Assembly (NCBI GenBank): GCA_963594675.1
Contig: CAVBGA010000187.1
Coordinates: 19 to 64,018, forward strand
DNA: 64,000 nucleotides
DNA from: Lachnospiraceae bacterium
GTDB taxonomy: Bacteria > Bacillota > Clostridia > Lachnospirales > Lachnospiraceae
Direction: 5' to 3'
In this document: in pieces, positions 4,887 to 57,201 of the stretch
Layout of the letters: the number at the start of each line of letters is the position of its first letter
Numbering within the stretch: position 1 is the first letter of the stretch
Made by a program: the position numbers and the translations under genes
The notes under the pieces: model-generated
Seen by the model: only the letters and a program-made list of their open reading frames with translations
Told to the model about the DNA's origin: nothing
The model's database searches: none

Positions 4887-5208
4887 TCTCCCAATCTCCT
4901 TACATATTTCTTATAGATCGCTTTATGTTTACATAATGTTAAATGCATTTGCAAGTTACTATAACACAAATTATATATTCAAAGTGCTTTCATTTAGTAA
5001 ACTAATAAATTACTAACGCGCATTAACGCGTTAAAGTACTACACTATATTAGCTTACCACAGGATTGTCAGTGACGCAAGTGAGAATTTCGTATATAATG
5101 AAGCCATATGATATTGCGGTTTATTATTCATGGATATAAGTTATGTCGAAGCTTATGAGCCATAGCTAGTACATGAGTAAATTTATAGAACAGTAGGAGA
5201 ATTCAACT

Positions 5209-6186
5209 ATGCAGCAATCGATTTATGGGAAAATCTGCTCCCGTTTACATGATGGAATATTGCCGGAGGATTTTTATATTGAAAATCCTAGAGATCAGGG
5301 AAGTCATCATCTTCCAGGGGCTTTGGACGGCTTATCCGTTTATCTTATGGGGTTTTCTCATCCGGATGCTTCCGGCCAAAAACTCATTGCAAGAGCTGTG
5401 GCAAAAGCATCGGAAGGTGATGTGGATCAGGTGATCGCATATTTACAGGAACTTTGCAAAAAATATCGTGCAGTGGATGCAGTGGACGAGTTGCAAAATT
5501 ACATTAGAAATCATGTTCGAAAGTTGAATATGAGAAATATCTATCACTCTGCTGTATACATACTTTTAAACTCCAGAGAAATTGAAGTTGTGAAGCTGGG
5601 TATGGAAATTCTGGAAATTTTTGTGGAAGTGGACGATCATAGTAAGGAGACTCTTCGGAGACTGGCTCTTTATGAAGAGTTTACCCTGCCTGCGGTTTGG
5701 AATATGAGAAAATGGGAAAATGCAAATGAAGAATTATTTGCCTTAGCGAAAAAAGTCCGAGGTTGGGGACGGATTCATGTCCTGGAATATCTGGATGCAA
5801 ATTGTGGTGAGATAAAAGATTGGCTGGTCACAGAGGGGGGCAATAATCTGGTAGATCGCAATTATACGGCTATGATTTGCTGGCAGCAGGGAGAGATTGA
5901 AGATCGGTTGAAAGGAAAAATTTCCCGAGAGGAATATAAGGGAATTTCCTATATAATAGAAGGATTGCTGAAGGATGAGCCAGCACCGGGGATTTCTGCC
6001 CTGCAAATAGACTATCCAGAATTAAGTTTGCGGCGATATTTACGGCAGTCAGAAGATTTTTCGCTGACAGAAGAAGAGTATGATGTGATTCTTTCTATTA
6101 AAAAGTGGGCAGAAAGCCAGGAAACCCCTTCGCTTTCATTGATCGAGGATTGCGACAGGATTTTAGCTGCTAGGGAGGTAGAATGA
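5209..6186 (+). CDS. hypothetical protein (predicted all-helical; no family recognised)
   Basis: 325-aa ORF with RBS AGGAGA upstream. Its stop overlaps the next start (ATGA at 6183-6186). Confidence 0.6.
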   Translation: MQQSIYGKICSRLHDGILPEDFYIENPRDQGSHHLPGALDGLSVYLMGFSHPDASGQKLIARAVAKASEGDVDQVIAYLQELCKKYRAVDAVDELQNYIRNHVRKLNMRNIYHSAVYILLNSREIEVVKLGMEILEIFVEVDDHSKETLRRLALYEEFTLPAVWNMRKWENANEELFALAKKVRGWGRIHVLEYLDANCGEIKDWLVTEGGNNLVDRNYTAMICWQQGEIEDRLKGKISREEYKGISYIIEGLLKDEPAPGISALQIDYPELSLRRYLRQSEDFSLTEEEYDVILSIKKWAESQETPSLSLIEDCDRILAAREVE

Positions 6187-9084: not shown

Positions 9085-9339
9085 TTATTTCAGATAACCT
9101 GCGATTACATAACCGGTAAGGTTAAGGGTTGGGGAATATACCTTTGTATAGGTATATCCGTTTTTGTGGATACCTTTTTGAAGAACTTTTACATAATCTC
9201 CATTATGCAGTCTGGCAATTTCCTGACTCCTTGAATAGATCGGATTCTTTCTAAGAGCCAGATAATTTCTAGTGCCGGATACAATTGCTCCGCCGATTAC
9301 CATTTCCAGTGCCTTGTCATTAATCATTGTTCTCATCAT
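9085..9339 (-). CDS. double-glycine-leader peptide with SH3b-like domain (paralog 1)
   Basis: 84 aa. Leader MMRTMINDKALEMVIGG. The mature part follows an SH3b-like pattern (LALR..P..EIARLHNGDYVKVL..NGYTYTKVY..TGYVIAGYLK). RBS is AAAGGAGAA. By my hand alignment it is identical to ORF 54999-55250 at 55 of 83 positions. Confidence 0.75.
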   Translation of the reverse strand: MMRTMINDKALEMVIGGAIVSGTRNYLALRKNPIYSRSQEIARLHNGDYVKVLQKGIHKNGYTYTKVYSPTLNLTGYVIAGYLK

Positions 9340-9392
9340 AATATTTTCTCCTTTAATGTTTTTCTAAATGTTTTTTGTGTGTGTTTCATTTG

Positions 9393-9452
9393 ATGAGTCT
9401 ATATTAACAAGGGAATCTGAACACAAAAACAGAAAAACCATAAGGAATCCTT
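9393..9452 (-). promoter_or_regulatory. hairpin/T-run plus extended -10 promoter module (copy A)
   Basis: Minus strand reads ATAAGGATTCCTTATGGTTTTTCTGTTTTTGTGTTCAGATTCCCTTGTTAATATAGACTC. The extended -10 TGTTAATAT lies at 9401-9409. The segment is homologous to 54874-54930 and 53395-53450. Confidence 0.5.
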
Positions 9453-9656
9453 ATTTAAGCTTAAGGTAAACTAAATCCTAATAAGTATTTTTTTTCTGAT
9501 TTTCATAAATTTACCTCCATGAAGACAAAATTTATCATATAATCAATGCAAAATCAATATATTGAAGTGAGAGTGCAGGAGTTAAATGTTTCGTGAGTAG
9601 TTTTTGGTGTGTAATTGTGTGTGGATTAACTTATAAAATACTATAGTGAAGACATG

Positions 9657-9823
9657 AAAAAACTCCGGTTGGCATTCCGGAGTAAGTTTCATAAAGGAAG
9701 GAGTGAATCGCTCACTGCCTGGCACTGCAGGAGCGATTCGGTATGAAAAAGAAAATGGTTTTTTTGGATGTTTTCCTTCATCCGATGGTTATACTATACT
9801 GTGAAAATGTGACCACTTTGTGT
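9657..9823 (-). ncRNA. candidate small RNA / cis-regulatory element, copy 1 of 2 (strand tentative)
   Basis: Near-identical copy at 19652-19815, including a 46-nt identical core. On the minus strand it has a -10-like TATAGT, hairpin GGATG-AAGGAAAA-CATCC, a 13-bp hairpin GAATCGCTCCTGC..GCAGTGAGCGATTC, the stretch CACTCCTTCCTT, then terminator ACTCCGG..CCGGAGT plus a T-run. No ORF is conserved between the copies. Confidence 0.45.
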
Positions 9824-9846
9824 TCAAGTCTTCAAGAAAGTGTGAA

Positions 9847-10476
9847 TTAAAAAATCACATTTCCTTCAAAGATTAGACTTTCCACCTGAGTTGTGGAAAG
9901 TTGCTCGATACTTGTCTCAAAAACATTCTGGTTCAAAACAAGATAATTTGCCATATTTCCCTTTTCTGAAGATCCGATGGAGTTCTCCATACCCATACAT
10001 TTGGCTCCTTCTATGGTATAGCCAAACATCATATCTCTGACAGAAAGACATTCGGATTCCAGTTGCCTTTTCTCAAAACAGGAAAGGGGATCCTGGCGGC
10101 TGGCACCGATTTGCATAGCTATAAAGGGATTGGCCCGGTCGATTTCTTCCATACTGACAATATCAGAACTGCAGCTTAGGGAAGCTTTGCATTTAATAAA
10201 ATCATTGAAGGAATAGAAGGTATCAAATCGTTCCTGGCCCAGAAGCTTTAGTGCTTCATCCCCAAAGATGCCGCCGTTCCAGTGAGGGGTGCAGTTGATG
10301 GAAATGCCCAAATCCGCAGCTCTTTTGCGATCAGCCGGTTTGGTGAGCTCACAGTGAAGGAGTTCTACCCTTGTGGTAAAGGCAATACCAGATTCATTTC
10401 TCCTATACCTTTTTTGCATATTCTTTAGGCAAAAAAAGAAGCACCAGAGATTGCTCTCCAGCACTTCTTTGTACAC
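9847..10476 (-). pseudogene. C-terminal fragment of a YtcJ-like amidohydrolase (amidohydrolase_3)
   Basis: Only the last about 175 aa resemble the C-terminal third of about 540-aa amidohydrolases (..GISINCTPHW.., ..YTIEGAKCMGMENSIGSSEKGNMANYLVL..FEGNVIF). The N-terminal about 35 aa are non-homologous read-through. There is no room for the missing N-terminal part before the LOG gene. Confidence 0.6.
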
Positions 10477-17201: not shown

Positions 17202-18116
17202 ATGAATTTTTCAAGTTTGACCTATTTTATGGCCGTGGAAGAAGAGAGAAATTTTACAAGGGCTGCAGAAAAATTGCATATTACCCAACAGACCTTGGGG
17301 GCTCATATTGCTGCGACGGAGAAGGAATTGGGCTGTCCTCTATTTATACGGCATAAGCCCCTGGAGCTGACAGAAGGAGGACGGATTTTTAAAGAATATG
17401 CTATGATTTTAAATCAGACCTATGAGTCTATGCTTCGTGAAATCGATGATCTTAGCAATCAGAAAAGTGGCGTGGTCCGTATAGGTGTGTCTGTCACCAG
17501 GGGCCGTACCCTAATGCCAGATCTTATTGCCCACTTTGCAGAACAATATCCCGGTTATGAAGTGCAGATTATCGAGGGGTCCAATAGCCAGCTACAGGAG
17601 CATCTGTTAAACAATGTGATTGATCTGGTTATCGCCAATTTTTCGGGAGATATTCCCGGTATTCGTCAATATCCCTTTTATGAGGAAGAGGTGGTAATGG
17701 TGGTAGCGGAAGAACTTTTAGAGAAATTACATGTAAGAAATATTCGTGAGATAGATTATGCTTCTATGAAGGACTGGCCTTTTATTATGGGGAAACCGGA
17801 TGATATGGCCGGGCAGGTGGGCCGGCAATTTTTCCGTATGCAAAACATCCGGCCTAGGGTGAAAGCCCAGGCCGGAAGTATGGAGACGATATTGCGTCTT
17901 TGTATGAGAGGTATCGGTGCTGCCTTCTGTCAAAGGAATCTTTTGCAGGATGCCATGGAATGGGAAGGAATTCGCAATCTTCGGGTGATTTCTCTTCCTG
18001 AAAATGCCAGATACCAGATTTGCTTTGGCTTGGCAGAGAAAAACAGAAATTGGAAAATCCTGATGGATCTAATGGATATCGCCCGCGAAAATCGTCAAGA
18101 CTCCAAGGAGGTCTGA
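17202..18116 (+). CDS. LysR family transcriptional regulator
   Basis: 304 aa with N-terminal HTH LTYFMAVEEERNFTRAAEKLHITQQTLGAHIAATEKELGCPLF. Confidence 0.9.
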   Translation: MNFSSLTYFMAVEEERNFTRAAEKLHITQQTLGAHIAATEKELGCPLFIRHKPLELTEGGRIFKEYAMILNQTYESMLREIDDLSNQKSGVVRIGVSVTRGRTLMPDLIAHFAEQYPGYEVQIIEGSNSQLQEHLLNNVIDLVIANFSGDIPGIRQYPFYEEEVVMVVAEELLEKLHVRNIREIDYASMKDWPFIMGKPDDMAGQVGRQFFRMQNIRPRVKAQAGSMETILRLCMRGIGAAFCQRNLLQDAMEWEGIRNLRVISLPENARYQICFGLAEKNRNWKILMDLMDIARENRQDSKEV

Positions 18117-19507
18117 CGCTGCTTTTCTAATTTTTCCAGGCGATGCATGTCTTTAAATTCAATTCGCACCATAAGAAGGGCCACGATGGCAGCCAGGGCA
18201 TCGGCAATGGGACCGGCAAAGAGGATGCCATTAATTTCCATAAACAAAGGCAAAATCAAGATCAAGGGGATCAAGAAAATAATCTGCCTGGTTAAAGAGA
18301 TAAACATACCCCTTAAGGGCTTGCCTACAGAGGCAAAAAATTGTGAGGTGGCCGGCTGAATACAGTTGGCCCAGGTACAAAAAAGGTAGATTCGGAAAAA
18401 GCGGACTCCGAAAGTGAAATACTTTTCATTTCCACTGCCAAAGAGGGCCAGCAGTTTGTCTGGAATCGTCTGAAAGAGAATCCAGGCAAGTACCGACACC
18501 ACAAAGGCAGATTTGATGGTAATCAGATAGGTTTCCCTTACCCTTTGATAACGGCGGGCACCATAGTTAAAGCTTTCAATGGGCTGAGAGCCCTGAGCAA
18601 GACCGATAACTATGGAGAAGAAAACCTGAAATACTTTTGTTACAATACCGGCGCAGGCGATGGGAATAGATGCACCATAAATAGAAAGGGCACCGTAGTA
18701 TTTCAGGGAATTATTTAGGATAATCTGCATAACCATCATAGCCAATTGGTTGACGCAGGAAGCCAATCCTAAAGAAGCCGTTTGGATAACAATGGCCGGA
18801 TCAGGGATGAAATGTTTCTTCTTTAAGGGAAGGGTTTTGAATCCTTTCATATAATAGAAGACCAGACATCCGGAAAATACCTGCCCAATCACTGTGGCCA
18901 AAGCGGCTCCGGACATACCCCAGTCAAAAACAATGACAAAGAGAGCATCCAGAACAGTATTAATGATGGCTCCGGACAGGGAGCAGATCATGGTCATGTT
19001 GGGGCTTCCGTCGGCTCGGATCAGGTGGCCGCCTCCGGTGGTTACGATAAGGAAGGGAAAGCCGATGGCAGTGATGCGAACGTAGGGGATGGCATAAGGT
19101 AAAACATTTTCCGGTGAACCGAAAAAGACCAACATAGGCTTTAGGATCAATTCTACATCCAAGCATAGGAAAATACCCAAAAGGAAGAGCATAAAAAGAG
19201 CGTTGCCTATAAAATAGGGGGCCTTCTCATATTCTTTACGTCCCATATGCAGGTTGAAATTGGCGGCGCCACCGATACCAAAGAGCAGACCGATGGCTGT
19301 ACAGGACATAGCCAGGGGAAAGGCGATATTGGTAGCGGCATTTCCAAGAGTACCTACATATCTTCCAATAAATATTTGATCTACTATATTATATAGAGCA
19401 CTTACCAGCATGGCGATGATGCTGGGAACTGCAAATTTAATCATGAGAGATCGGATGGGACCTTGTCCCAAAAGTTCTTCTCGGGAAGAGATAGCTGATG
19501 AATCCAT
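18095..19507 (-). CDS. MATE family efflux transporter
   Basis: 470 aa, about 12 TM segments, N-terminal VPSIIAMLVSALYNIVDQIFIGR motif. Its 3' end overlaps the convergent LysR gene by 22 bp. Confidence 0.9.
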   Translation of the reverse strand: MDSSAISSREELLGQGPIRSLMIKFAVPSIIAMLVSALYNIVDQIFIGRYVGTLGNAATNIAFPLAMSCTAIGLLFGIGGAANFNLHMGRKEYEKAPYFIGNALFMLFLLGIFLCLDVELILKPMLVFFGSPENVLPYAIPYVRITAIGFPFLIVTTGGGHLIRADGSPNMTMICSLSGAIINTVLDALFVIVFDWGMSGAALATVIGQVFSGCLVFYYMKGFKTLPLKKKHFIPDPAIVIQTASLGLASCVNQLAMMVMQIILNNSLKYYGALSIYGASIPIACAGIVTKVFQVFFSIVIGLAQGSQPIESFNYGARRYQRVRETYLITIKSAFVVSVLAWILFQTIPDKLLALFGSGNEKYFTFGVRFFRIYLFCTWANCIQPATSQFFASVGKPLRGMFISLTRQIIFLIPLILILPLFMEINGILFAGPIADALAAIVALLMVRIEFKDMHRLEKLEKQRQTSLES

Positions 19508-19651
19508 GATAATTTCTCCTTTTGAATATCTGAATATTTGTAACTTCTATAATTCTATAATAAGTAAAGAATAAGCGAAGATGTTTTGTCGGGGTTTATT
19601 CTACTCTAATAGGGGAAGGAAAGCAAATTGTGTATGGCTCTGAATAGTTAC

Positions 19652-19815
19652 AAAAAAACTCCGGGTTGAGAATCCGGAGTTAAAAAAGGAAGGAGTGAAT
19701 CGCTCACTGCCTGGCACTGCAGGAGCGATTCTGTATGAAAAAGAAATTGGTTTTTTAAAGATGTTTTCCTTCATCGATGGGTATACTATAACCCTTAAAT
19801 GTGACCACTTTGTGT
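19652..19815 (-). ncRNA. candidate small RNA / cis-regulatory element, copy 2 of 2 (strand tentative)
   Basis: Same architecture as 9657-9823. It lies in the divergent intergenic region between the MATE gene (start 19507, minus strand) and the LysR gene (start 19995, plus strand). Confidence 0.45.
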
Positions 19816-19994
19816 AGAAATTCTCAATAAATTATAAACTAAAACTTCCCATACCCAAAATGGGATTCGTACCTTGAAAATTCAACACACCTTATCGGTG
19901 TGGGAAGTTTAAGCTACGTATGACAATCGATTCTTGCGAATCAGGTGTGTCTGAAGTACAATTAACAAAAGCGATGCATAAATGGAGAAAAAAT

Positions 19995-24364: not shown

Positions 24365-24529
24365 AATAGGTATTCCTAATTGGCATGTTATAAACTGGTT
24401 AAATTATAACATAGCGTTAGAAAATCTTCAATCGATAACTTGTTATCAATAGCTAATTCTGTAAAATAAATATCGTGTTGTGCATGTTTTATTTACTATT
24501 ATGCACAAATATAATAATTCCATAACGAA

Positions 24530-24712
24530 CAGCAAGATATGTTTTGCCTAGAGTAAATTAAATGGGAAATCGGTGTGAGTCCGATACGATCCCGTCACTG
24601 TGATAGCGAGTGAACAGCAATATGTCACTGGAATCGAGTTAGAGAGAGCTTTTCTGGGAAGGCGCTGTTTACTAGGACCTTAAGTCAGGAGACCAGCTTA
24701 TCTTGTTATAGC
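24530..24712 (+). promoter_or_regulatory. cobalamin (AdoCbl/B12) riboswitch
   Basis: Conserved elements AATGGGAAATCGGTGTGAGTCCGATAC, CCCGTCACTGT, GTCACTGG, GGGAAGGCG and the B12 box AGTCAGGAGACCAGC. P1 pairs CAAGATA with TATCTTG. Terminator-like hairpins at 24748-24835 lie downstream. Confidence 0.9.
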
Positions 24713-24938
24713 AGTTTCATACGGTGTATATGAACACTATAGAAAAAGAGACAGACGATGCAAAAGTCACCTGTCTATTTCTATGTGTCAAAGACCCCTG
24801 CATTTATAAAAGCATGAGGTCTTTCTTTATGTTTGTTGCAGCCGGAAGGAGGTTGATTACTATTTTTGTAATTAATTTCGGCAGCAGGTTCGTTGGGGAT
24901 TAAAAAAGGAAGTATTATTTTAAAAGGAGAAGAAACGA

Positions 24939-30885: not shown

Positions 30886-32796
30886 ATGAATAAAAAACAA
30901 AAACGTCTATTGATTCGCATCATAATTGCGGCAATTTTCTTTGTGCCTTTATATCTGATTTCAGAAGGAATTGTTGATGTGAACATGCCTAAGCCGGCAT
31001 TGATCATTCTTTTCTTGATTCCTTATCTGACAGTAGGATATGACATATTAAGAAAAGCCTTTTTGGGTATTAAGAATAAGCAGGTATTTGACGAGTCTTT
31101 CCTTATGACAGTAGCAACTGTCGGCGCCATTGTACTTGGTGAGTATGGTGAGGGTGTTGCCGTTATGTTGCTTTTCCAGGTAGGAGAATTGTTCCAGTCT
31201 TATGCCGTAGGAAAGAGCCGTCGCAATATTTCTGACCTGATGGATATCCGTCCGGATTATGCTAATATTGAGGTGGACGGTCAGTTAGAACAGGTAGACC
31301 CTGATGAAGTAGAAGTGGGAAGCATTATTGTGGTACAGCCTGGTGAGAAAATTCCTCTTGATGGTGTGATTAAAGAAGGTAGTTCCGCGCTGAATACCAG
31401 TGCTCTGACAGGTGAAAGTAAACCTGTTGATGTGGCGCCAGGACAGACGGTTCTTAGTGGAAGCATCAATATGACAGGTGTTCTTAAGATAGAGACCACC
31501 ACAGAATTTGATGAATCTACAGCTTCTAAGATTCTGGACCTTGTAGAGAATGCAGCTTCCAGAAAATCAAAATCTGAGAACTTTATTTCCAAATTTGCCC
31601 GTGTGTACACACCTATTGTGTGTTATGCAGCTTTGGCTCTTGCTATTCTTCCGCCTCTTTTCATTATGCTTACAGGAATTGGTGGAGCTGGCTATGCGAG
31701 TACAGGAGCCATCTGGAGTGACTGGGTGCTTCGTGCTTGTACTTTCTTGGTAATTAGCTGTCCTTGTGCAGTAGTAATCAGTATCCCATTGAGTTTCTTC
31801 GCAGGAATTGGTGGAGCCAGCAGTCAGGGTGTTCTGGTGAAGGGTTCCAACTATTTGGAAACTCTTTCTGAGGTATCTGTTATTGCCTTTGATAAAACAG
31901 GAACGATTACTAAGGGTAATTTTGAGGTAACAGCCATTCATCACAACCCTATGGATGACAAGAAGCTTCTGGAGTATGCGGCACTTGCAGAGTGTCATTC
32001 CTCCCATCCTATCAGCCTTAGTCTTCAGAAGGCTTATGCTGGTAAACTTGACCAGTCCAGAGTAACAGATCTTCAGGAGATCAGTGGCCATGGTATTATG
32101 GCTAAGGTAGATGGCAAGAATGTTGCTATCGGTAATGAAAAAATGATGAAAAAAGTGGGCGTGGAAGCACACACATGCCACCATACAGGAACGATTATTC
32201 ATATAGCTATTGATGGAGAGTATTGTGGACATATCGTTATTTCTGACGAGTTGAAACCTACTTCTAAAGAAGCTATGGCAGAGCTGAAGCATGCAGGCGT
32301 AGAAAAGACGGTTATGCTGACAGGAGATGCTGAGGCAGTTGCAAAGAAGGTTGCTGCAGAGGTTGGACTTACCGATTACAGAGCAGAGCTTCTTCCGGCT
32401 GATAAAGTAACTGCTGTAGAAGAGCTTTTGGCTGAGTGTAAGGGAGGAAAGAGACTGGCCTTTGTTGGTGATGGTATTAATGATGCACCAGTTCTGTCTC
32501 GTGCTGACATCGGTATTGCTATGGGTGCTCTTGGATCAGATGCTGCCATTGAGGCAGCTGACATCGTTCTGATGGATGATGATCCTCTTAAGATTGCTAA
32601 GGCAATTAAGATTTCCAGAAAGTGTCTGGGAATTGTGAAACAGAACATCATCTTCGCTCTTGGCGTTAAAATCCTTTGTCTGATACTTGCAGCCTTTGGT
32701 ATCGCCAATATGTGGGTAGCAATCATTGCCGATGTAGGTGTTATGATTCTGGCCGTATTGAATGCTATCCGTTGTCTCTTTGTGAAGAACTTATGA
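30886..32796 (+). CDS. heavy-metal translocating P1B-type ATPase (Zn/Cd/Pb-type signature), lacking an N-terminal HMA domain
   Basis: 636 aa with TGES, CPCAVVISIP (CPCx4SxP), DKTGT, GDGINDAP, N-x7-K (NIIFALGVK) and DVG in the last TM. Confidence 0.9.
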   Translation: MNKKQKRLLIRIIIAAIFFVPLYLISEGIVDVNMPKPALIILFLIPYLTVGYDILRKAFLGIKNKQVFDESFLMTVATVGAIVLGEYGEGVAVMLLFQVGELFQSYAVGKSRRNISDLMDIRPDYANIEVDGQLEQVDPDEVEVGSIIVVQPGEKIPLDGVIKEGSSALNTSALTGESKPVDVAPGQTVLSGSINMTGVLKIETTTEFDESTASKILDLVENAASRKSKSENFISKFARVYTPIVCYAALALAILPPLFIMLTGIGGAGYASTGAIWSDWVLRACTFLVISCPCAVVISIPLSFFAGIGGASSQGVLVKGSNYLETLSEVSVIAFDKTGTITKGNFEVTAIHHNPMDDKKLLEYAALAECHSSHPISLSLQKAYAGKLDQSRVTDLQEISGHGIMAKVDGKNVAIGNEKMMKKVGVEAHTCHHTGTIIHIAIDGEYCGHIVISDELKPTSKEAMAELKHAGVEKTVMLTGDAEAVAKKVAAEVGLTDYRAELLPADKVTAVEELLAECKGGKRLAFVGDGINDAPVLSRADIGIAMGALGSDAAIEAADIVLMDDDPLKIAKAIKISRKCLGIVKQNIIFALGVKILCLILAAFGIANMWVAIIADVGVMILAVLNAIRCLFVKNL

Positions 32797-34145
32797 AAAA
32801 ATCAACAAAAGACCTGACAGTGGGAACTCCTTGGAAGGCGATTATTATGTTTGCCCTGCCTTTGCTTGGCAGTTCCCTAATCCAGCAAATGTATGGAACG
32901 GTGGATCTGTTTTTTGTCAGCAGATATCTAGGTACCAATGCAGCCTCTGCTGTAGGAGCCAGTGATCTTCTGGTTACATGTCTGGTAGGACTTTTTACAG
33001 GAATTTCCGTAGGTTCCAATGTGGTTGCTGCACAAGCCTTTGGCGCAAAGGATAAAGAGCGACTTCATGAACTGATTCAGACCATGGTAACCTTTGGTGT
33101 GATTGGTGCTCTTGTTTTATTGGCAATTGGTGAGCTTTTCGCGCCCACCTTCTTGCAATGGCTGAACACGCCGGAAAGCATTCAGCCCTTGGCGGTAACT
33201 TATTTAAGAATTTATTTCTTATGTATTTTCAGCATTGTTTTATATAATCTCTGCTCTGGAGTTGTGAGAGCTTTGGGAGACTCTGCTGCGGCCATGCGCT
33301 TCCAGATTTATGGTGGCTTAGCCAACGTGGTAATGGATTTTCTTATGATTGTATTCTTGAAATGGGGCGTTGCCGGTGCAGCTTTGGCTACATTCCTGTC
33401 TCAGACTACGGCAGCTTTCTTTACCATCCGTTATCTGATGCGTTTGGAAAGGGAAATTCGCTTGGATCTTAAGCAGCCCATGATCAATGGCTATCTGTTA
33501 AAGAAGGTACTGGCGGTAGGAATTCCCTCAGGTGTTCAATCTATGATCGTCACTTTTGCCAATCTTTTGGTGCAGGCGGTGATCAATGGTTTTGGTGTTG
33601 CGGTTATCGCAGCCTTTGTGGTGTATTTCAAGGTGGAACTTTTCATTTGGTATCCCCTGGTGGCCATTGGTCAGGCCCTGGTTACTTATACAGCTCAGAA
33701 TATCGGGGCAGGACGCAAGGATCGTGTCAAGAGTGGAGCCGTTACAGGGGTTATTCTTGGGGTTGTAGTGTGTCTGGTACTTGGCAATCTCCTTCGCTTT
33801 TTCGCACCTCAGATTTTCGGACTTTTCAATCCGGATACCGAGGTGATCGAGGCAGGAGTTTCCATTGTATCCGTAACCTTCCCATTGTATTTCCTTTGCT
33901 GTTTTCAGGATGCTTTTGGAAGTGTCTTGAAAGGTTTCGGCAACGGAACCTGGCCTATGGTGGTTAGTGTATGCTTTCTTTGCATATTCCGAGTTGTTAT
34001 ACTTTATGCTTTTAATGCAAAATGGCATACCATTGCAACGGTAGCAGCGGTATATCCTATCACCTGGGCGGCGGCAGGCCTTTTTATGTTCCTGGCCTTG
34101 CTTATCTTTATGAGAAAATATAATCAGGGAATGAATAGAAAATAA
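32793..34145 (+). CDS. MATE family efflux transporter
   Basis: Start MKKSTKDL overlaps the ATPase stop (ATGA). About 12 TM segments. The upstream extension of the ORF (from 32676) lies inside the ATPase gene. Confidence 0.85.
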   Translation: MKKSTKDLTVGTPWKAIIMFALPLLGSSLIQQMYGTVDLFFVSRYLGTNAASAVGASDLLVTCLVGLFTGISVGSNVVAAQAFGAKDKERLHELIQTMVTFGVIGALVLLAIGELFAPTFLQWLNTPESIQPLAVTYLRIYFLCIFSIVLYNLCSGVVRALGDSAAAMRFQIYGGLANVVMDFLMIVFLKWGVAGAALATFLSQTTAAFFTIRYLMRLEREIRLDLKQPMINGYLLKKVLAVGIPSGVQSMIVTFANLLVQAVINGFGVAVIAAFVVYFKVELFIWYPLVAIGQALVTYTAQNIGAGRKDRVKSGAVTGVILGVVVCLVLGNLLRFFAPQIFGLFNPDTEVIEAGVSIVSVTFPLYFLCCFQDAFGSVLKGFGNGTWPMVVSVCFLCIFRVVILYAFNAKWHTIATVAAVYPITWAAAGLFMFLALLIFMRKYNQGMNRK

Positions 34146-43962: not shown

Positions 43963-45342
43963 TTAAGAAGCGCTATTTTTATGACTTTTTGCCAGAGCTT
44001 TTTTAAAGCGAAAGCTGAATAGTACAATGGTAAAAGATACTGCCAGAAAATCGGCAATGGGTTCTGCAGCATATACAGCCAGAGTCTGGTAGGAAGACCA
44101 GATATGAGGCATGATATAAATTAAAGGCAACAGCAGAATAAATTTACGGGCAACTGCCACAATAATGGATTCTTTTGCACATCCGATGGAGGTAAAAGCC
44201 ATCTGGCAGGCGGTCTGGATGCCCATCATAAATACACATCCCAAGTAAATGCGAAGGGCTGTTTTGGTAAAAGTGATTAAGGTGGCATCCGTTGTAAAGA
44301 TGCCTGCAAAAATCTGTGGGAATATCATGACCAAAAGCCAGATGATAGCAGCGTAGGCGAAGTCGATTTTTAATAAAAGAAAATAGGTTTCCTTCACGCG
44401 ATCCGTCTGACCAGCTCCATAATTAAAGCTCATAATAGGCTGGGCTCCCTGGCCGATTCCCTGGAGAGGAAGCATGGCAAACTGCATGACTGTGGATAGG
44501 ATTGTCATAGCACCGACAGCCACATCCCCACCGTATACCAAAAGCGAAGAATTAAAGCAGATATTGATAATGCTTTCACTGGCCTGCATAACAAAGGTAG
44601 CAGTACCAAGGGCGATGCAGGGGAGGATAATTTCTCCGGAAAGTTTCATATTTTTAAACTTTAGCTGTAACTTGCTTTCCTTACCCAGAAGAAAATGAAT
44701 AATCCAGATGCAGGAAGCTGCCTGGGAAATGACGGTAGCAAGAGCAGCACCTTTTACTCCCATATGGAATCCGAAAATAAAAATAGGATCCAAGATGATA
44801 TTGAAAATAGCGCCAATAAGTACAGATAACATACCCGTCTTTGCAAAACCCTGGGTTGTGATAAACATATTCATGCCCAGAGTCATTTGCACAAAAATGG
44901 TTCCTACAGAATAGATATTCATGTAATCTACGGCATAGCCAATGGTATTTTTACTGGCGCCAAAGGCCAAAAGCAGGGGCTTGTTAAAAAGCAATAAAAG
45001 TATGGTCAGAGCAAGGGAGATAATAATCTGCAGGGCAAAACAATTTCCCAGAATTTTTTCTGCTGTATCATAGTCTTTCTTTCCCATACAGATAGAGGCT
45101 CTTGGAGCACCGCCGCTTCCCACCAGGGCTGCAAAGGCGGAGACAATAAGGATGATGGGCATACAAACCCCAAGACCGGTAAGAGCTAAAGAACCTACCT
45201 TAGAAATATGTCCAATATACACCCGGTCTACAATGTTATACAACATATTGATAAGCTGGGCAGTGACGGTGGGAATGGCCAGACTAAAGAGAAGATTCTT
45301 AATAGGAGCTTTTCCCAGATAATCTTTGTCTTTTTGATTCAT
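43963..45342 (-). CDS. MATE family efflux transporter
   Basis: 459 aa with N-terminal IPTVTAQLINMLYNIVDRVYIGH, the same subfamily as 18095-19507. Confidence 0.9.
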   Translation of the reverse strand: MNQKDKDYLGKAPIKNLLFSLAIPTVTAQLINMLYNIVDRVYIGHISKVGSLALTGLGVCMPIILIVSAFAALVGSGGAPRASICMGKKDYDTAEKILGNCFALQIIISLALTILLLLFNKPLLLAFGASKNTIGYAVDYMNIYSVGTIFVQMTLGMNMFITTQGFAKTGMLSVLIGAIFNIILDPIFIFGFHMGVKGAALATVISQAASCIWIIHFLLGKESKLQLKFKNMKLSGEIILPCIALGTATFVMQASESIINICFNSSLLVYGGDVAVGAMTILSTVMQFAMLPLQGIGQGAQPIMSFNYGAGQTDRVKETYFLLLKIDFAYAAIIWLLVMIFPQIFAGIFTTDATLITFTKTALRIYLGCVFMMGIQTACQMAFTSIGCAKESIIVAVARKFILLLPLIYIMPHIWSSYQTLAVYAAEPIADFLAVSFTIVLFSFRFKKALAKSHKNSAS

Positions 45343-46527: not shown

Positions 46528-47895
46528 ATGAGCCGTGTTCTATCATCGAAGCAATCGATGAAAAGCAGAGAGATTCATTTTGAAAAAGGTCCCATCGTAG
46601 GGGCCTTGTTAAGCTACACAGCACCGATTTTACTGTCTCAGCTTTTGCAGCAGGTTTATAACATTACGGACTGCGTGATTGTGGGGCGTTTTTGTGGCTC
46701 CTATGGTCTGGCGGCAGCAGGATTGGGTGGCTTGATTCTTTCTGTCTTGATTAATTTCTTTATTGGTTTTTCTACGGGAGCCGGAATTCTGGTTTCCCAG
46801 CAGTTTGGGGCTTATCGTTATGAAAAATTGAGGAAGACTATTTCTACCATCGTGCATCTTGGCATGCTCTTAGGCCTGCTTCTTACGGGTGCAGGGCTTG
46901 TTAGTTCTTGTTTACTTTTGAAAATGATTAGCTGTCCGGAAGATATGTTCAGCGTCAGCAATACCTATCTTATGATTTGTTTTCTGGGACTTCTGCCTCA
47001 ATTAGTATACAATATTGGAAATGCAATCCTTGAGGCCTTGGGAGATACAAAATCTCCTTTGCATTATCTATTTTTTTCCTGCCTGATCAATTTAGGGTTA
47101 GATGCCCTTTTTGTTATAGGATTTGATTTTGGCTTGGCCGGTGCGGCAGCGGCAACAGTGATTGCCCAATGGATTCTTTTCTTAATGATGATGGGAAGAC
47201 TGTATATGCTGGATCCGGCTTACGCCTATCGCATGAATTCAGAAATGCTATCCCTAAAAGAATTGGGAGAAATGATTGCTCTTAGCCTTCCCTCTGGAAT
47301 GCAGGCAGTATTTATGAGTATTTCCTCTCTGGTCTTGCAGGTAACCATCAATAGTTTTGGAGCAGCAGCTGTGGCGGGCATGACGGTTTATGCAAAGTTG
47401 GAAGGATTTCTATATTATCCAGCTTTTTCTTATGGCATTGCCCTGACAGGATTTGTGGGACAAAATTATGGGGCTCGCTGTATGGATCGTGTGAAACAGT
47501 CCGTTAGGGTAAGTCTTGGGGTCTGTACAGCAATTATTTTGCCTTTGAGTTTATTTTTAGTGGCAATTTCTCATCATGTCTTAGGGATTTTTACGACGGA
47601 TGCCGATGTGATTTATAATGGCTGTCAGGCCATATTATATAATTTTCCATTTTATTTCCTCTATATGATCAATCAGATTTATCTGGGATCTTTGAAAGGA
47701 TTGGGCAAGACAACGTATCCAATGATCTGTACTATGGTTTGTTATTGCTTTTTCAGAGTTTTTTGGTGTTGGCTTTGGATTCCACATTTTCACAGCATGA
47801 TCGTGGTCTATACTAGTTATGATGCCAGCTGGATTGTGATGATTCTGATGTTGATTCCTTATTTTAGGAAGACCTTGAAAGAAAAATCCGCTTGA
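46528..47895 (+). CDS. MATE family efflux transporter
   Basis: 455 aa, 12-TM pattern, with APILLSQLLQQVYNITDCVIVGR. Confidence 0.85.
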   Translation: MSRVLSSKQSMKSREIHFEKGPIVGALLSYTAPILLSQLLQQVYNITDCVIVGRFCGSYGLAAAGLGGLILSVLINFFIGFSTGAGILVSQQFGAYRYEKLRKTISTIVHLGMLLGLLLTGAGLVSSCLLLKMISCPEDMFSVSNTYLMICFLGLLPQLVYNIGNAILEALGDTKSPLHYLFFSCLINLGLDALFVIGFDFGLAGAAAATVIAQWILFLMMMGRLYMLDPAYAYRMNSEMLSLKELGEMIALSLPSGMQAVFMSISSLVLQVTINSFGAAAVAGMTVYAKLEGFLYYPAFSYGIALTGFVGQNYGARCMDRVKQSVRVSLGVCTAIILPLSLFLVAISHHVLGIFTTDADVIYNGCQAILYNFPFYFLYMINQIYLGSLKGLGKTTYPMICTMVCYCFFRVFWCWLWIPHFHSMIVVYTSYDASWIVMILMLIPYFRKTLKEKSA

Positions 47896-53180: not shown

Positions 53181-53394
53181 ATATAGATGATATGTTATCG
53201 GATCTTACAGGTGGAGACAATGAGACGGTATCCTTTGTCTCAGAAAAAAATGGAACTATTGATTCTGTGCAATTCGTTATAAAAACGGATGCAATTGAAA
53301 AGGAAGAGGAGGAAACAAGCACAGATACAGAAGAGACCAAGACAAGCTTGATTGATAAAATTCGAGATCTATTTTAAGTTGGCTTAAGAAAAAA

Positions 53395-53450
53395 GGCAGA
53401 AATACTTATGGTATTTCTGCCTTTTCCTTTAGATTCATTTGCTATTATAG
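53395..53450 (+). promoter_or_regulatory. terminator hairpin plus extended -10 promoter module (copy C)
   Basis: GGCAGAAATA-CTTATGG-TATTTCTGCC, then TTTTCCTTTAGATTCATT, then TGCTATTAT (53440-53448). It lies upstream of the MATE gene at 53497. Confidence 0.55.
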
Positions 53451-53496
53451 CTCGGTAAAAAGGAAAAACACAAACTGAGAAGGGAAAAAATGACAA

Positions 53497-54843
53497 ATGA
53501 GCCAACCACTTTATTCGAAAAAGGACCTAAAAAAATTAATTCTTCCACTCCTGGCTGAGCAGGCGTTAACCTTGACGGTAGGAATGGCAGATACCATGAT
53601 GATTGCTTCTGCTGGAGAAGCTGCCGTTTCCGGTGTTTCCTTGGTGGATATGTTGAACACACTTATTATCAGCGTTTTGGGTGCCTTGGCTACCGGAGGA
53701 GCTGTGGTTACTTCTCAATTTTTGGGGGCAGGTAACCGAAAAGATGCATGCAAATCCGCCCGTCAGCTGACGGTTTCCTCTATTTGCATCACCATGGTAA
53801 TCTCAATACTCATTATGATATTTCACAATGGGATCATATCCCTTTTCTTTGGAAAGATAGAAGCAGATGTATTTAGAAATTGTGTGATCTATCTCTTATT
53901 TTCTGCGGTATCCTTTCCTTTTTTAGCTTTATATAACTCCTGTGCGGCAATATTTCGCTCCATGGGCAATTCACAAATCACTTTAAAAGTGTCCGTAATA
54001 GAAAATATTATCAATATCGGGGGAAATGCCTTAGGTATGTATGTTTTCCATGCAGGAGTGGCTGGCGTTGCCATTCCTTCATTGATTTCCCGCGCAGTAG
54101 CCGGATTCATACTTTATGTACTTCTTAAGAATACAAAAAATGAAGTATATTTTTCCCGTGATAAATTCTCTTTTGACTGGCTTATGATCAAAAGAATTCT
54201 GTCCCTGGGAATCCCCAGTGGTATAGAAAATGGAATCTTCCAGCTGGGTCGCGTCATCGTTGTCAGCATTATTGCAAGCTTTGGTACGGTTCAGATTGCA
54301 GCAAATGGTGTTTCCAATGGATTGGACAGTATGGGCTGTATTGTAGGACAGGCGATGAACCTTGCCATGATCACAGTAATTGGCCGTTGTGTAGGTACAG
54401 GTCAGGAAAAACTGGTGCGCCATTATACCAAAAAATTGATGATCATCACCTACAGCTATACCTTTTGCCTTAACCTTCTTATTATCCTGGGACTTCCCTG
54501 GATCCTTAAGCTGTATGGGCTAAATGACGACACAACGCATTTATCTTACATATTGGTAATGATTCATAACTCAGCAGCTATATTGCTGTGGCCGCTTTCC
54601 TTTACCTTCCCCAATATGTTGAGAGCATGCAATGATGTACGCTTCCCAATGATTATATCCATTTTGTCTATGTTTACTTTCCGTATATTCTTCAGCCTTT
54701 TCCTGGGTGTTTATATGGGATACGGAGCCATAGGCGTTTGGATTGCCATGATTCTGGACTGGCTTTTCAGGATTACCTGCTTTATCATACGCTACTTGTC
54801 AGGCCATTGGAAAAAAACGGCGAAACTGCAGGCAGCTGCCTAA
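53497..54843 (+). CDS. MATE family efflux transporter
   Basis: 448 aa, 12-TM pattern, with LLAEQALTLTVGMADTMMIA. Confidence 0.9.
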   Translation: MSQPLYSKKDLKKLILPLLAEQALTLTVGMADTMMIASAGEAAVSGVSLVDMLNTLIISVLGALATGGAVVTSQFLGAGNRKDACKSARQLTVSSICITMVISILIMIFHNGIISLFFGKIEADVFRNCVIYLLFSAVSFPFLALYNSCAAIFRSMGNSQITLKVSVIENIINIGGNALGMYVFHAGVAGVAIPSLISRAVAGFILYVLLKNTKNEVYFSRDKFSFDWLMIKRILSLGIPSGIENGIFQLGRVIVVSIIASFGTVQIAANGVSNGLDSMGCIVGQAMNLAMITVIGRCVGTGQEKLVRHYTKKLMIITYSYTFCLNLLIILGLPWILKLYGLNDDTTHLSYILVMIHNSAAILLWPLSFTFPNMLRACNDVRFPMIISILSMFTFRIFFSLFLGVYMGYGAIGVWIAMILDWLFRITCFIIRYLSGHWKKTAKLQAAA

Positions 54844-54873
54844 CTCAGCTATTTAGCTTAGCTTAAGGTATTC

Positions 54874-54930
54874 TGCAGAAACCCTTATGGTACTTCTGTT
54901 TTTTTCTTCAGATTCGATTGGTATTATAGA
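54874..54930 (+). promoter_or_regulatory. hairpin/T-run plus extended -10 promoter module (copy B)
   Basis: GCAGAAACC-CTTATGG-TACTTCTGTTTTTTTCTTCAGATTCGAT, then TGGTATTAT (54919-54927). CTTATGG is 38 nt from the -10, the same spacing as in copies A and C. Confidence 0.5.
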
Positions 54931-54998
54931 CTCATCAAAAGGAACAAGAAAAAAACACACAAAACAAAAAACAAAACATAAGAAAAGGAGAAAACGAA

Positions 54999-55250
54999 AT
55001 GAGAACAATGATTAACGAGAAAGAACTGGAAATGGTAACTGGTGGAGCAAGAGTACGTGGTACAAAAAATTATCTGGCCTTGAGAAGTAGAACCGTATAC
55101 TCAAGAAAAACAGAAATTGGTCGTCTCTACAATGGAGAGTATGTGCAGATCCTGAAAAAAGGCTTCCAGAATAATGGATATAGATATACCCTGGTATATT
55201 CACCAAGACTGAACCGCACGGGTTATGTAGTAGCCGCTTATGTAAAATAA
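54999..55250 (+). CDS. double-glycine-leader peptide with SH3b-like domain (paralog 2)
   Basis: 83 aa. The leader MRTMINEKELEMVTGG fits the I(-12) E(-8) L(-7) V(-4) G(-2) G(-1) consensus. RBS AAAGGAGAA. The mature part is SH3b-like. Confidence 0.75.
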   Translation: MRTMINEKELEMVTGGARVRGTKNYLALRSRTVYSRKTEIGRLYNGEYVQILKKGFQNNGYRYTLVYSPRLNRTGYVVAAYVK

Positions 55251-55340
55251 TATCAGCAAAGACAGCAAGAAAACAAAAGAGATAAGGATAAGAAAAAACA
55301 AGAAATAAAGGAAAAGATATAAGAAAAGGAGAATAACATT

Positions 55341-55754
55341 ATGACAGCAACAGTAGTATCAGTAATTGTAACAATTTTGGTAATCGCAGCAAAATGGAGA
55401 ATTTTCGACAAGATGGGCGTGGCAGGATGGAAAGCTCTGATCCCTATCTATAGTGGATATATCATTTTTGACAAGATTTGGTCCGGAAAGATGTATCTGG
55501 CAACCCTTGCATTTACATTTGGAAGCATGTTTGCATCAGATATGGCAACCCAGATCGGTGGAAATGCACTTCTTCCCCTGAACCTGTTAGCACTTGCATG
55601 TGGTATCGCAACCCTTGTACTTGCAGTAAAATTCTCAGCTAAACTTTCTAAAGCATTTGGTCACGGAAATGGATTTGCATGTGGCATCCTTTTCCTGAAC
55701 GCCATCTTCATGATGATCCTTGGATTTGGTAAATCCAGCTTCAAAGCAGCATAA
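55341..55754 (+). CDS. small 4-TM membrane protein, DUF5684-like
   Basis: 137 aa. AAKWRIFDKMGVAGWKALIPIYSGYIIF resembles the DUF5684 signature as I recall it. RBS AAAGGAGAA. It is in the same operon as the GG-leader peptide. Confidence 0.65.
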   Translation: MTATVVSVIVTILVIAAKWRIFDKMGVAGWKALIPIYSGYIIFDKIWSGKMYLATLAFTFGSMFASDMATQIGGNALLPLNLLALACGIATLVLAVKFSAKLSKAFGHGNGFACGILFLNAIFMMILGFGKSSFKAA

Positions 55755-55800
55755 GAAACATAAGAGAATATAGAATATATAAGAAAAAGAAATTAAAAAG

Positions 55801-55838
55801 GGATTGCATAGTAGATGAGTACTATGCAGTCCTTTTTG
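55801..55838 (+). terminator. intrinsic terminator
   Basis: GGATTGCATAGTA .. TACTATGCAGTCC followed by TTTTT. Confidence 0.75.
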
Positions 55839-55897: not shown

Positions 55898-57046
55898 TTA
55901 TCTTCGCCTGCCATGCCTTCTGGGCTTATCCTGGTCCTTTACCAAAAGAATGAGTACATAGAGGGGAAGGAGTAAAATAAAGAATACAATCTCATACCAA
56001 TGAAATAATTTGCCAGGGGGTGAGGTTGTAAAATTTATAAGTGTAGCAAGACCGGTAGTTATTAATGCGATAAAGTATATAAAAACAGCAAGCGTGGTAG
56101 CGTCGGTATCTTTATAAAGCATAAATGCTGATACTGCTATAATCATAACAAACAAAAATATTACAAAATAGCCCAATGACTTATACATGCTTGCGTTTGT
56201 TTTGTAGCTACTTTGGGATTTAGCACGGTAGGCTTTAGGAATGCCTTTATAAAAATTATCATCAGGACAAAGTTGCTGTTTAAAACGCTCTACCTGTGAA
56301 TAATACCAAATGTAATAACATACGAGTGCAATGAGAATCAATACCATAATTATCACACAAATCAAAATTATAGTATCTTTGTTTATGGAGCCAATATCTT
56401 TGTTTATGGAGTCAAGTAAATGAGACTGTAAATTGTTTATGGAGGCAGCTAACTTACTATTCTTCAAAAATGGTAGTGCTAATATCACGAGCAAAAATGC
56501 AATTAAAATTCCCCAGAAAATCCTAAAATGCCATATGAAATTTTTAAAAGAAAGTAAATATGGGGGGCAAGGTTCGTGTATGCCTTTTTTGGCCTTTCGG
56601 TAAGATCTTGTTTTATAATTCGAAAGAGCGCAATAATAAGATATTACTATCATAAAATACACAAAAATTATTAAATAAGCATCTAAACTTATAATATTTA
56701 AAGTGTCCTCGCTCATACAAAATGGGTCATCTATTACGAGGGCTAAAAGCACCACTGCTATCAGCAACATAATACCCACAATTAGAAGCCGCGAAGACAG
56801 AGATAGCGAGGCTTTCTCTTGTGAAGAATCGGGTTGAGAAACCTCAGCTTGTACAGGCTCGGGTTGAGAAATATTCTCTTGTACTATTTTAGGGGGAGAT
56901 TCACAAATAGGCTGAGGATGGGCTGGTTGCTTGTTTTTGCTTTTGAAAATATATTTTCTGGCACAACAAATGATTAGTACCATCACAGTTATAAGTAAGA
57001 ATACAGCCCATATCAAAACTACTGTATCAGTGACCTCATCATACAT
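55898..57046 (-). CDS. polytopic membrane protein, hypothetical (AT-rich gene)
   Basis: About 382 aa from MYDEV (RBS AAAGAGG). It has one TM segment, a Pro/Gln-rich linker, then about 7 TM segments. It contains the internal repeat DSINKDIGSINKD. Confidence 0.6.
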   Translation of the reverse strand: MYDEVTDTVVLIWAVFLLITVMVLIICCARKYIFKSKNKQPAHPQPICESPPKIVQENISQPEPVQAEVSQPDSSQEKASLSLSSRLLIVGIMLLIAVVLLALVIDDPFCMSEDTLNIISLDAYLIIFVYFMIVISYYCALSNYKTRSYRKAKKGIHEPCPPYLLSFKNFIWHFRIFWGILIAFLLVILALPFLKNSKLAASINNLQSHLLDSINKDIGSINKDTIILICVIIMVLILIALVCYYIWYYSQVERFKQQLCPDDNFYKGIPKAYRAKSQSSYKTNASMYKSLGYFVIFLFVMIIAVSAFMLYKDTDATTLAVFIYFIALITTGLATLINFTTSPPGKLFHWYEIVFFILLLPLYVLILLVKDQDKPRRHGRRR

Positions 57047-57201
57047 AAAGACCTCTTTTCTTATAACAATATTTAGCGATGTTTTTTCCATTATATTGCC
57101 AGGCGTATTAGTTTTTCAAGGGGGAAACGTGGGTTCGTATGTTATAATAAGATGATCAATTATTGTACACAGAAATTATATAGAAAGTAAGAGAAAATGC
57201 T

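Follow-up and report, generated by a model that had tools for sequence, protein, structure and literature searches.

C39-peptidase ABC exporters (PCATs) act on substrates with an N-terminal double-glycine (GG) leader of the consensus L(-12)xxxE(-8)L(-7)xxxxG(-2)G(-1); the leader residues at -7 and -12 form a hydrophobic knot with the peptidase domain, and the residue at -4 sets specificity (PMC6959990). The known PCAT cargoes are short peptides, that is, bacteriocins, pheromones, and precursors of peptides that are synthesized ribosomally and then modified post-translationally (RiPPs); the described PCAT/AMS substrates include class II bacteriocins, ComC/BlpC, LahA, and CtA, the cargo protein of PCAT1 from Clostridium thermocellum, whose role is not described in the PCAT1 structural paper (PMC6959990). 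Among these exporters, PCAT1 is the structural model that has been studied most. Bacterial-type SH3 (SH3b) domains are known from endolysins and autolysins (e.g., the phiSM101 endolysin Psm and lysostaphin-type enzymes), in which they are extracytoplasmic, are joined to a catalytic domain, and depend on Sec or holins for release. Here we describe a gene for an 83-residue protein in a 64,000-nucleotide stretch of contig CAVBGA010000187.1 from a Lachnospiraceae bacterium (assembly GCA_963594675.1); this whole stretch is called the window. We consider it probable that the protein is a precursor in which a canonical 16-residue GG leader is followed by a 67-residue, strongly basic SH3b domain, and that this domain is exported as a non-catalytic wall-binding protein.

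The protein starts with MRTMINEKELEMVTGG and continues, after the leader/cargo boundary, as ARVRGTKNYLALRS...YVK. Counted back from Gly16, the leader has Gly at -1 and -2, Val at -4, Leu at -7, Glu at -8, and Ile at -12; it has the same length as the leaders of the PCAT/AMS substrates and fits their consensus, with Ile replacing Leu at -12. Relatives were collected with phmmer, run exhaustively on 1.84 billion cluster representatives (189 relatives), and with a profile search of a 5.8-billion-sequence set (241 relatives). Approximately 100 of the relatives are short (83–125 residues, with 93 distinct leaders), and all of these are built as leader, GG, and single domain; the GG is invariant in 77 of the 77 aligned homologues, which are 36–88% identical to the query. 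Among the 93 distinct leaders, position -7 is Leu in 84 (90%), position -8 is Glu in 77 (83%), position -12 is Val, Ile, Met, or Leu in 90 (97%), and position -4 is Ile, Val, Ala, or Leu in 87 (94%); position -15 is mostly Phe, Leu, Met, Tyr, or Ile (75 of 93), and the residues between the consensus positions vary. AlphaFold2 (AF2) places a helix at residues 7–12 (-10 to -5) with low confidence (mean predicted local distance difference test score, pLDDT, of 48 for residues 1–10 and 77 for residues 11–20); a helix is also found at that place in the leaders bound to PCAT1 and LahT (PMC6959990). The sequence features of the PCAT/AMS substrates are present together, that is, a GG that closes a leader of suitable length (16 residues, where 14–30 are usual), hydrophobic residues at -4, -7, and -12, an acidic residue at -8, and a predicted short helix in the stretch (about -10 to -4) where an amphipathic helix is expected. 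Judged by this conservation, the N-terminus is a genuine GG leader and not a chance match, as the initial annotation of this DNA had proposed from a single sequence.

The cargo is an SH3b fold according to its predicted structure. The AF2 model of the 83-residue protein (77-sequence alignment) has a mean pLDDT of 87.8, with values >90 over residues 17–83, where six strands are found. A Foldseek search of the PDB with this model retrieves SH3 domains only; the best superpositions are those with 4krt, the SH3_3 wall-binding domains of the endolysin of the Clostridium perfringens phage phiSM101, and with 6biq, the bacterial-type SH3 (SH3b) domain of Trichomonas NlpC2 (TM-score of 0.6 normalized to all 83 residues, root-mean-square deviation of 2.2–2.9 Å). 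In BFVD (predicted viral structures), the top Foldseek matches are endolysin SH3b modules of the PlyB-like, CHAP, and amidase types. The SH3b pattern noted in the initial annotation is borne out by these comparisons. A sequence search of the PDB with the 83-residue query returned nothing at E ≤ 10, so the protein is not sequence-related to CtA or to any other solved chain. The same annotation had stated that the product is not a short cationic or amphipathic bacteriocin; this needs correction as to the charge, because the mature 67-residue domain has a net charge of +12 and a pI of 10.5. Three paralogues have net charges of +8 to +11; the median charge of the family is 0, and most of its members are neutral or acidic. 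The window copy lacks Cys, and its core is not rich in Cys, Ser, or Thr.

Most of the sequence relatives are longer, with two to five or more tandem copies of the domain, and by inspection the domains of these longer proteins are preceded by a Sec signal peptide or an N-terminal membrane anchor. The same domain follows such a signal or anchor in P0005, P0006, P0008, and others (P and L numbers are our labels for relatives and loci). In some relatives, the domain is joined to a glucosaminidase, to a Ser/Thr kinase (Pkinase), or to a zinc ribbon that has a predicted membrane span. In P0005 (L008 10001–10411), a Sec signal peptide and an acidic linker precede a single domain that reads TVRGTKNYLALRSRPSYSD...; in both P0005 and P0144, which are Sec-type relatives with a single SH3b domain, the linker between signal peptide and domain is highly acidic and rich in Asp, Tyr, and Trp (DDDYDDYDGYDDY...). 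The occurrence of the same domain behind Sec signals and in tandem repeats implies that it works outside the cell, and the SH3b cargo is most likely an extracytoplasmic, cell-wall-binding domain; the glucosaminidase-fused relatives and the structural likeness to the wall-binding domains of endolysins suggest binding to peptidoglycan or the wall. The strongest argument for export of the GG version is that organisms differ in how they handle this cargo: some send it through Sec, and others equip it with a GG leader.

The initial annotation saw one gene of this kind; a second copy in the window (9085–9339) and the wider set of paralogues had been missed. The 9085–9339 paralogue is 66% identical to the copy at 55 kb, with a dN/dS of 0.20 against it, and has a net charge of +8 and no downstream membrane gene. 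P0002 (88% identical) and the window gene are located ~68 kb apart on one 101,847-bp metagenomic contig, and three contigs of the metagenome-assembled genome (MAG) GCA_964580605.1 between them carry P0003 (76%), P0048 (41%), and again the window gene; the paralogues were tied to the same organism by exact-sequence look-ups. The species has at least five paralogues, which are found in unrelated housekeeping neighborhoods. The possibility that the window and L001 form one contiguous region was considered and rejected; their blastn similarity covers the GG-SH3b cassette only, and the two loci are those that lie ~68 kb apart on the 101,847-bp contig. The informative paralogue pairs have dN/dS values of 0.13–0.26; these values show that purifying selection acts on the five paralogues and that the gene is genuine. 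In the four close paralogues, the leader is 81–94% conserved whereas the whole protein is 66–88% conserved, as expected if all of the copies fit one exporter.

Where the records name an organism, the domain family is found in ruminant-gut Lachnospiraceae and allied MAGs; the only GG-type locus among those named is L017 (Eubacterium sp.), and two further GG-type members are from an Eubacteriales MAG. In the GTDB representative genomes, no high-identity match to the source species was found (best hit 55%). All of the database members are nameless or called hypothetical. Beside the second GG-SH3b locus of the window, the match of the ORF (open reading frame) at 9847–10476 (-) to Amidohydro_3 is confined to the C-terminal third (profile positions 302–472 of 472), and the ORF is probably the remnant of a truncated gene.

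For the SH3b protein of the window, GG-directed export is likely from the sequence evidence. A PCAT encoded elsewhere in the genome would bind the leader through Ile-12, Leu-7, and Val-4, cleave after Gly16, and release the 67-residue cargo unfolded; the cargo would then fold outside the cell and bind peptidoglycan or other anionic wall polymers. Its likely role would be to occupy or shield the sites used by SH3b-targeted lytic enzymes or otherwise to modulate wall turnover, and one regulator, recognizing a shared promoter module (module A, vide infra), would turn on all of the copies at the same time. Export of such a cargo by a PCAT is plausible because CtA, the cargo of PCAT1, is of nearly the same size (66 residues vs 67) and is kept unfolded in a cavity without specificity for a particular cargo (PMC6959990), and because LahT150, a C39 domain from Lachnospiraceae, tolerates highly divergent cargo (PMC6363468).

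Several results weigh against export by this route. No PCAT is encoded in the window, as the initial annotation had also reported; a scan for the C39 motif and the ABC signature found none, and the ten long window ORFs scanned with Pfam are unrelated enzymes and transporters. No PCAT was found within 10 kb of 93 related loci (~0.9 Mb), which were searched with a crude regular expression for the C39 motif and ABC signature and with Pfam lists; the large ABC protein at L028 was considered as a candidate and dismissed, because Pfam finds no C39 domain in it. The exporter is therefore inferred; remote exporters that serve dispersed GG genes are known in streptococci. The curated leader models are silent: NCBIfam (TIGR01847-type models) gives no match at E ≤ 10 for either protein of the locus, and Pfam assigns no bacteriocin-leader family to the 83-residue protein; short-motif models are easily lost to HMMER filters. 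The SH3_3 model (PF08239) matches the window protein weakly (15.6 bits vs a cut-off of 27, E = 0.019) and does little better with the 9085–9339 paralogue (17.2 bits), whereas the larger phmmer homologues pass it strongly (e.g., P0026 at 604.8 bits) and many of the profile-search matches carry PF08239. In the 83-residue subfamily the GG abuts the first β-strand, and AF2 draws residues 15–19 as strand, so cleavage must precede folding. Finally, two features are shared with toxins, namely the +12 charge and the small membrane genes behind three of the five paralogues, and for this reason a bacteriocin is retained as the main rival.

The GG-SH3b gene of the window is followed by a gene for a small polytopic membrane protein (Table 1). 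The ORFs, the extended -10 element, the 65-nt 5' leader, the purine-rich spacer, and the terminator are all present as initially annotated, and the arrangement as a two-gene transcription unit agrees with the ORFs, the Pfam assignment of the second gene, and the folding of spacer and terminator. A simple sigma-70 scan does not call the extended -10 element TGGTATTAT because it has no -35 match; however, promoter alignments reveal that a TGnTAxxAT element is kept at equal spacing ahead of the paralogues. With 46 A, 9 C, 8 G, and 2 T, the 5' leader folds with a minimum free energy (MFE) of 0 kcal/mol; A-rich 5' leaders are also present in the paralogues and the wider family and match no known RNA family in Rfam. 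The spacer is 81% purine (56 A, 17 G) and unstructured (MFE -0.4 kcal/mol). This unstructured 90-nt spacer, the strong ribosome-binding site (RBS) in it, and the single terminator after the second gene argue that the two genes are co-transcribed. The terminator hairpin (55800–55832) with its T-run folds at -25.8 kcal/mol; an A-run on its upstream side allows the hairpin to terminate the convergent gene at 55898–57091 as well. Five local proteins had no match to the PADLOC defence models, and Rfam, run on the whole window and with a permissive E-value over both SH3b loci, found only a cobalamin riboswitch and a tRNA, both located elsewhere.

Table 1. Features of the GG-SH3b locus, of its paralogue in the window, and of the promoter elements (window positions unless a locus is given).
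Feature	Position	Strand	Basis
GG-leader SH3b gene, 83 residues, starts MRTMINEKELEMVTGG	54999-55250	+	
Double-glycine leader, 16 codons, MRTMINEKELEMVTGG	54999-55046	+	Consensus match, conserved in homologues
Predicted SH3b (SH3_3-type) cargo, 67 residues and stop codon	55047-55250	+	AF2, Foldseek, Pfam of relatives
DUF5684 membrane protein gene, 137 residues, small polytopic	55341-55754	+	
Extended -10 TGGTATTAT (hexamer TATTAT 54922-54927)	54919-54927	+	Read from sequence; no recognizable -35
Predicted 5' leader, 65 nt, RBS AAGGAG at 54985-54990	54934-54998	+	Transcription start inferred
Intergenic spacer, 90 nt, RBS AAAGGAG	55251-55340	+	No terminator
Bidirectional intrinsic terminator: 13-bp stem, 6-nt loop, T-run	55800-55837	.	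Folding; scan call on minus strand
Promoter module A (TTAGCTTAAG ... CCTTATGGT ... TGTTTTT ... TTCAGATTCnnTTGnTATTATAGACTCATCAAA)	54851-54941	+	Alignment with paralogue upstream regions
Second GG-leader SH3b paralogue, 84 residues, MMRTMINDKALEMVIGG + SH3b	9085-9339	-	tblastn and ORF list
Module A and A/C-rich leader of second paralogue	9340-9480	-	Exact core-pattern match 9397-9421; alignments
Third module A copy, ahead of MATE gene 53497-54843	53370-53465	+	Core match 53428-53452, 3 mismatches
TGTGAC-N5-TGTGAC repeat, examples	L050 3229 and 5727, L051 9906, L053 2002, L061 7566, L067 2623, L069 9850; Sec-type: L008 6559, 9868		

The membrane protein belongs to Pfam DUF5684 (PF18936; 41.5 bits vs a cut-off of 27.4), as does the partner of P0002 (45.5 bits), and it shares the conserved motifs of the family, WKIFxKAGxxGWKALIPIY and KLSKAFGHGxGF...LILGFG; DUF5684 has no general association with GG-leader or SH3b genes. 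Its AF2 model is an all-helical membrane bundle (pLDDT 92.6) for which Foldseek finds no meaningful match in the PDB (E above 2), and no paper in the literature that we searched mentions the family. A DUF5684 partner accompanies two of the at least five paralogues, the window gene and P0002. Behind P0048 lies an extremely hydrophobic 71-residue ORF that has no Pfam match and is unrelated to DUF5684 (L011 10324–10539, +); no membrane gene follows the 9085–9339 copy or P0003. In total, a downstream membrane gene is found with 3 of ~35 distinct GG-SH3b genes, all three from this species, and the ~30 more distant GG-SH3b genes are monocistronic. Elsewhere, DUF5684 homologues occur in housekeeping contexts (e.g., between rpmF and plsX) with no GG-SH3b gene, so the co-occurrence expected of a dedicated pair is not seen. 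At the P0002 locus, blastn identity to the window continues through the spacer up to the DUF5684 start, which implies duplication of the pair as a unit and subsequent, much faster divergence of the membrane gene; identity is 39% between the two DUF5684 partners and 88% between their SH3b genes. The DUF5684 gene is a general small membrane protein gene that this sub-lineage has acquired, and nothing shows an immunity role for it. The bacteriocin and immunity pair that the initial annotation had seen in this layout is accordingly not supported.

The interpretation as a bacteriocin nevertheless deserves consideration. In this alternative, the product is an unmodified bacteriocin: the cationic SH3b domain inhibits competitors (e.g., by binding peptidoglycan or lipid II), and the DUF5684 protein protects the producer. 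The GG leader is the classic export signal of class II bacteriocins, and the mature domain (~7.8 kDa as estimated from its 67 residues) is strongly basic, given its charge and pI. Folded, β-rich bacteriocins of this size exist, e.g., lactococcin 972, which is Sec-exported and has a different fold; like such small folded bacteriocins with membrane immunity genes, and like the class II pairs, the window product is small (~7–8 kDa), basic, and β-rich, and a small polytopic membrane gene directly follows in the same transcription unit. A small polytopic membrane protein gene is found 71–96 nt downstream of three of the five paralogues with no terminator between (two DUF5684, one the unrelated 71-residue ORF). 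However, the membrane partner is missing in most of the family, that is, from ~30 other GG-SH3b genes and from two paralogues in the same genome (9085–9339 and P0003), and DUF5684 proteins live elsewhere without a GG-SH3b gene. The pairs have not co-diverged, given the 39% identity of the DUF5684 partners against 88% for the SH3b proteins; selection on the paralogues is purifying and not diversifying; and most of the family is neutral or acidic. None of the loci examined comes with a transporter, accessory, or regulator gene, so neither hallmark of a class II bacteriocin, a family-wide linked immunity gene or dedicated transporter/accessory genes, is found there. Taken together, a bacteriocin with its immunity protein is unlikely. 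A class III bacteriolysin of the lysostaphin or enterolysin type was ruled out separately, because the mature product is a single 67-residue SH3b domain with no catalytic hydrolase domain.

We regard it as still less probable that the protein is not exported at all, that is, that the 16 N-terminal residues belong to a small, basic SH3-like protein of the cytoplasm, such as a nucleic-acid binder, and have no function in export. SH3-like barrels that are small and very basic are known to bind nucleic acids, and both the lack of an adjacent exporter at every locus examined and the silence of the curated leader models speak for such a protein. Against it, the leader consensus is kept at five separate positions among 93 distinct leaders, with variable residues in between; elsewhere, the domain occurs behind Sec signals and membrane anchors and in wall hydrolases, its closest structures are wall-binding SH3b domains, and most members of the family are not basic. 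GG leaders also serve lanthipeptides and pheromones, and a promoter module common to the paralogues could reflect autoinduction; the leader might therefore guide modification enzymes in a RiPP precursor, or the product might be a quorum signal sensed by a two-component system. We consider this the most improbable of the alternatives: the 67-residue domain is confidently folded, the window copy has neither Cys nor a core rich in Cys, Ser, or Thr, and no modification enzyme, histidine kinase, or response regulator is encoded near any GG-type locus. The RiPP interpretation in particular was rejected on the lack of Cys-rich cores and of modification enzymes. An exported, wall-binding SH3b protein is the interpretation that we prefer to each of these.

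Expression of the GG-SH3b paralogues appears to be coordinated. A region of ~90 nt can be aligned upstream of the window gene, the 9085–9339 paralogue, P0002, and P0003; this is module A, which has the consensus TTAGCTTAAG ... CCTTATG(G/A)T ... TGTTTTT ... TTCAGATTCnnTTGnTATTATAGACTCATCAAA and which was aligned at 9340–9480 (-), L001, and L005 and is degenerate at L011 (P0048). The core pattern of module A occurs three times in the window, compared with zero occurrences expected by chance. One of these precedes the gene at 53497–54843 (+), which is MatE by Pfam and is located immediately upstream of the GG-SH3b locus; there the similarity extends over the whole ~90-nt module. The promoter had been noted in the initial annotation, but not that its module is shared, nor that it also precedes a MATE gene. 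Because module A is common to the paralogues and the MATE gene, they probably form one regulon.

The wider subfamily of ~100-residue GG-SH3b proteins has a different upstream architecture. In these genes, a TGTGAC-N5-TGTGAC direct repeat stops 11 nt short of an extended -10 (TGnTATACT), which is followed by TCATCAAATAAAA; the repeat is present in 16 of 36 distinct upstream regions of the ~100-residue GG-SH3b genes and also ahead of Sec-type single-SH3b genes. The window genes share with this architecture only the -10 spacing and the TCATCAAA start region. In its geometry, the repeat resembles the boxes of OmpR/PhoB/WalR-type response regulators (for WalR, the consensus is TGTWAH-N5-TGTWAH); this suggests that the small secreted SH3b proteins form a two-component regulon. 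At L008, the genes for a receiver protein (269 residues) and for a 163-residue protein with no Pfam match (5068–6365, -) are divergent to a Sec-type SH3b gene preceded by the TGTGAC repeat; the 269-residue protein has a receiver domain only, with no recognized output or DNA-binding domain, and the two proteins are candidate regulators. In many ~100-residue GG-SH3b genes (L053–L060, L069–L072), the long A-rich 5' leader contains a small conserved hairpin, CCGCA-N4-6-TGCGG.

The window contains additional features that were recorded in the course of this analysis. A ~190-nt element (element B) is present in two copies, at 9655–9860 (-) and 19647–19850 (-), that share an identical 35-nt core; each copy combines a promoter-like TATAGTATA with a long hairpin (GAAUCGCUCCUGC...GCAGUGAGCGAUUC) and also contains a CUCCUUCC tract and an intrinsic terminator, and the folding z-scores are -4.4 and -4.8. 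One copy is located upstream of the MATE gene at 18095–19507, and the other ~300 nt upstream of the second GG-SH3b gene. Element B has no Rfam match; it could be a cis-regulatory leader or a small RNA. The window encodes five MATE-family paralogues (18095–19507, -; 32676–34145, +; 43963–45342, -; 46528–47895, +; and 53497–54843, +). The cobalamin riboswitch (24522–24715, +; RF00174, 101 bits) is upstream of an operon for an SBP_bac_5/oligopeptide-type ABC transporter (24939 onward).

When compared with the described systems, the leader and the domain are each of a known type; what is new, on the evidence of sequence, is their combination, that is, a GG-leader export signal on a folded SH3b cargo in a sizeable (~100-member) family. 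The GG-SH3b family differs from the PCAT/AMS substrates in that its cargo is a recognizable folded domain family that is also found behind Sec signals and in multidomain wall enzymes, in that the loci examined lack an adjacent PCAT, immunity, accessory, or regulator gene, in that several dispersed paralogues are present per genome, and in that the curated leader models do not detect it. From the SH3b domains of endolysins and autolysins, with which it shares the fold and the probable extracytoplasmic location and to whose SH3_3 family it is linked through its homologues, the window domain differs in that it stands alone without a catalytic domain, is probably exported through a GG leader instead of by Sec or holins, and is unusually cationic. 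A full-text search of the literature (GG leaders or PCATs with SH3/SH3b; bacteriocins of the rumen and of Lachnospiraceae; genome mining of PCAT cargoes) returned no description of such proteins, in agreement with the initial remark that a GG-exported SH3b domain is not a described class.

We suggest, tentatively and with more doubt than confidence, that the GG-leader SH3b proteins are an unrecognized class of PCAT cargo, that is, folded, wall-targeting effectors (antimicrobial or wall-shielding) that form a multi-copy regulon in rumen Lachnospiraceae; relatives would export the same cargo by Sec, the regulon would include a MATE transporter in the window species, and control by a response-regulator-type repeat (TGTGAC-N5-TGTGAC) would apply in the wider family. 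If true, a GG leader on a folded domain would widen the cargo range of PCAT exporters, and the use of GG leaders and Sec signals for the same cargo in relatives would provide a natural test of how the export route is chosen. The common promoter modules offer a way to identify the regulator and the remaining members of the regulon. A free, secreted SH3b domain has no obvious enzymatic role; whether it acts by shielding the wall, competing with lysins, or killing, its function would bear on the cell-wall ecology of the rumen and on resistance to phages and bacteriocins.

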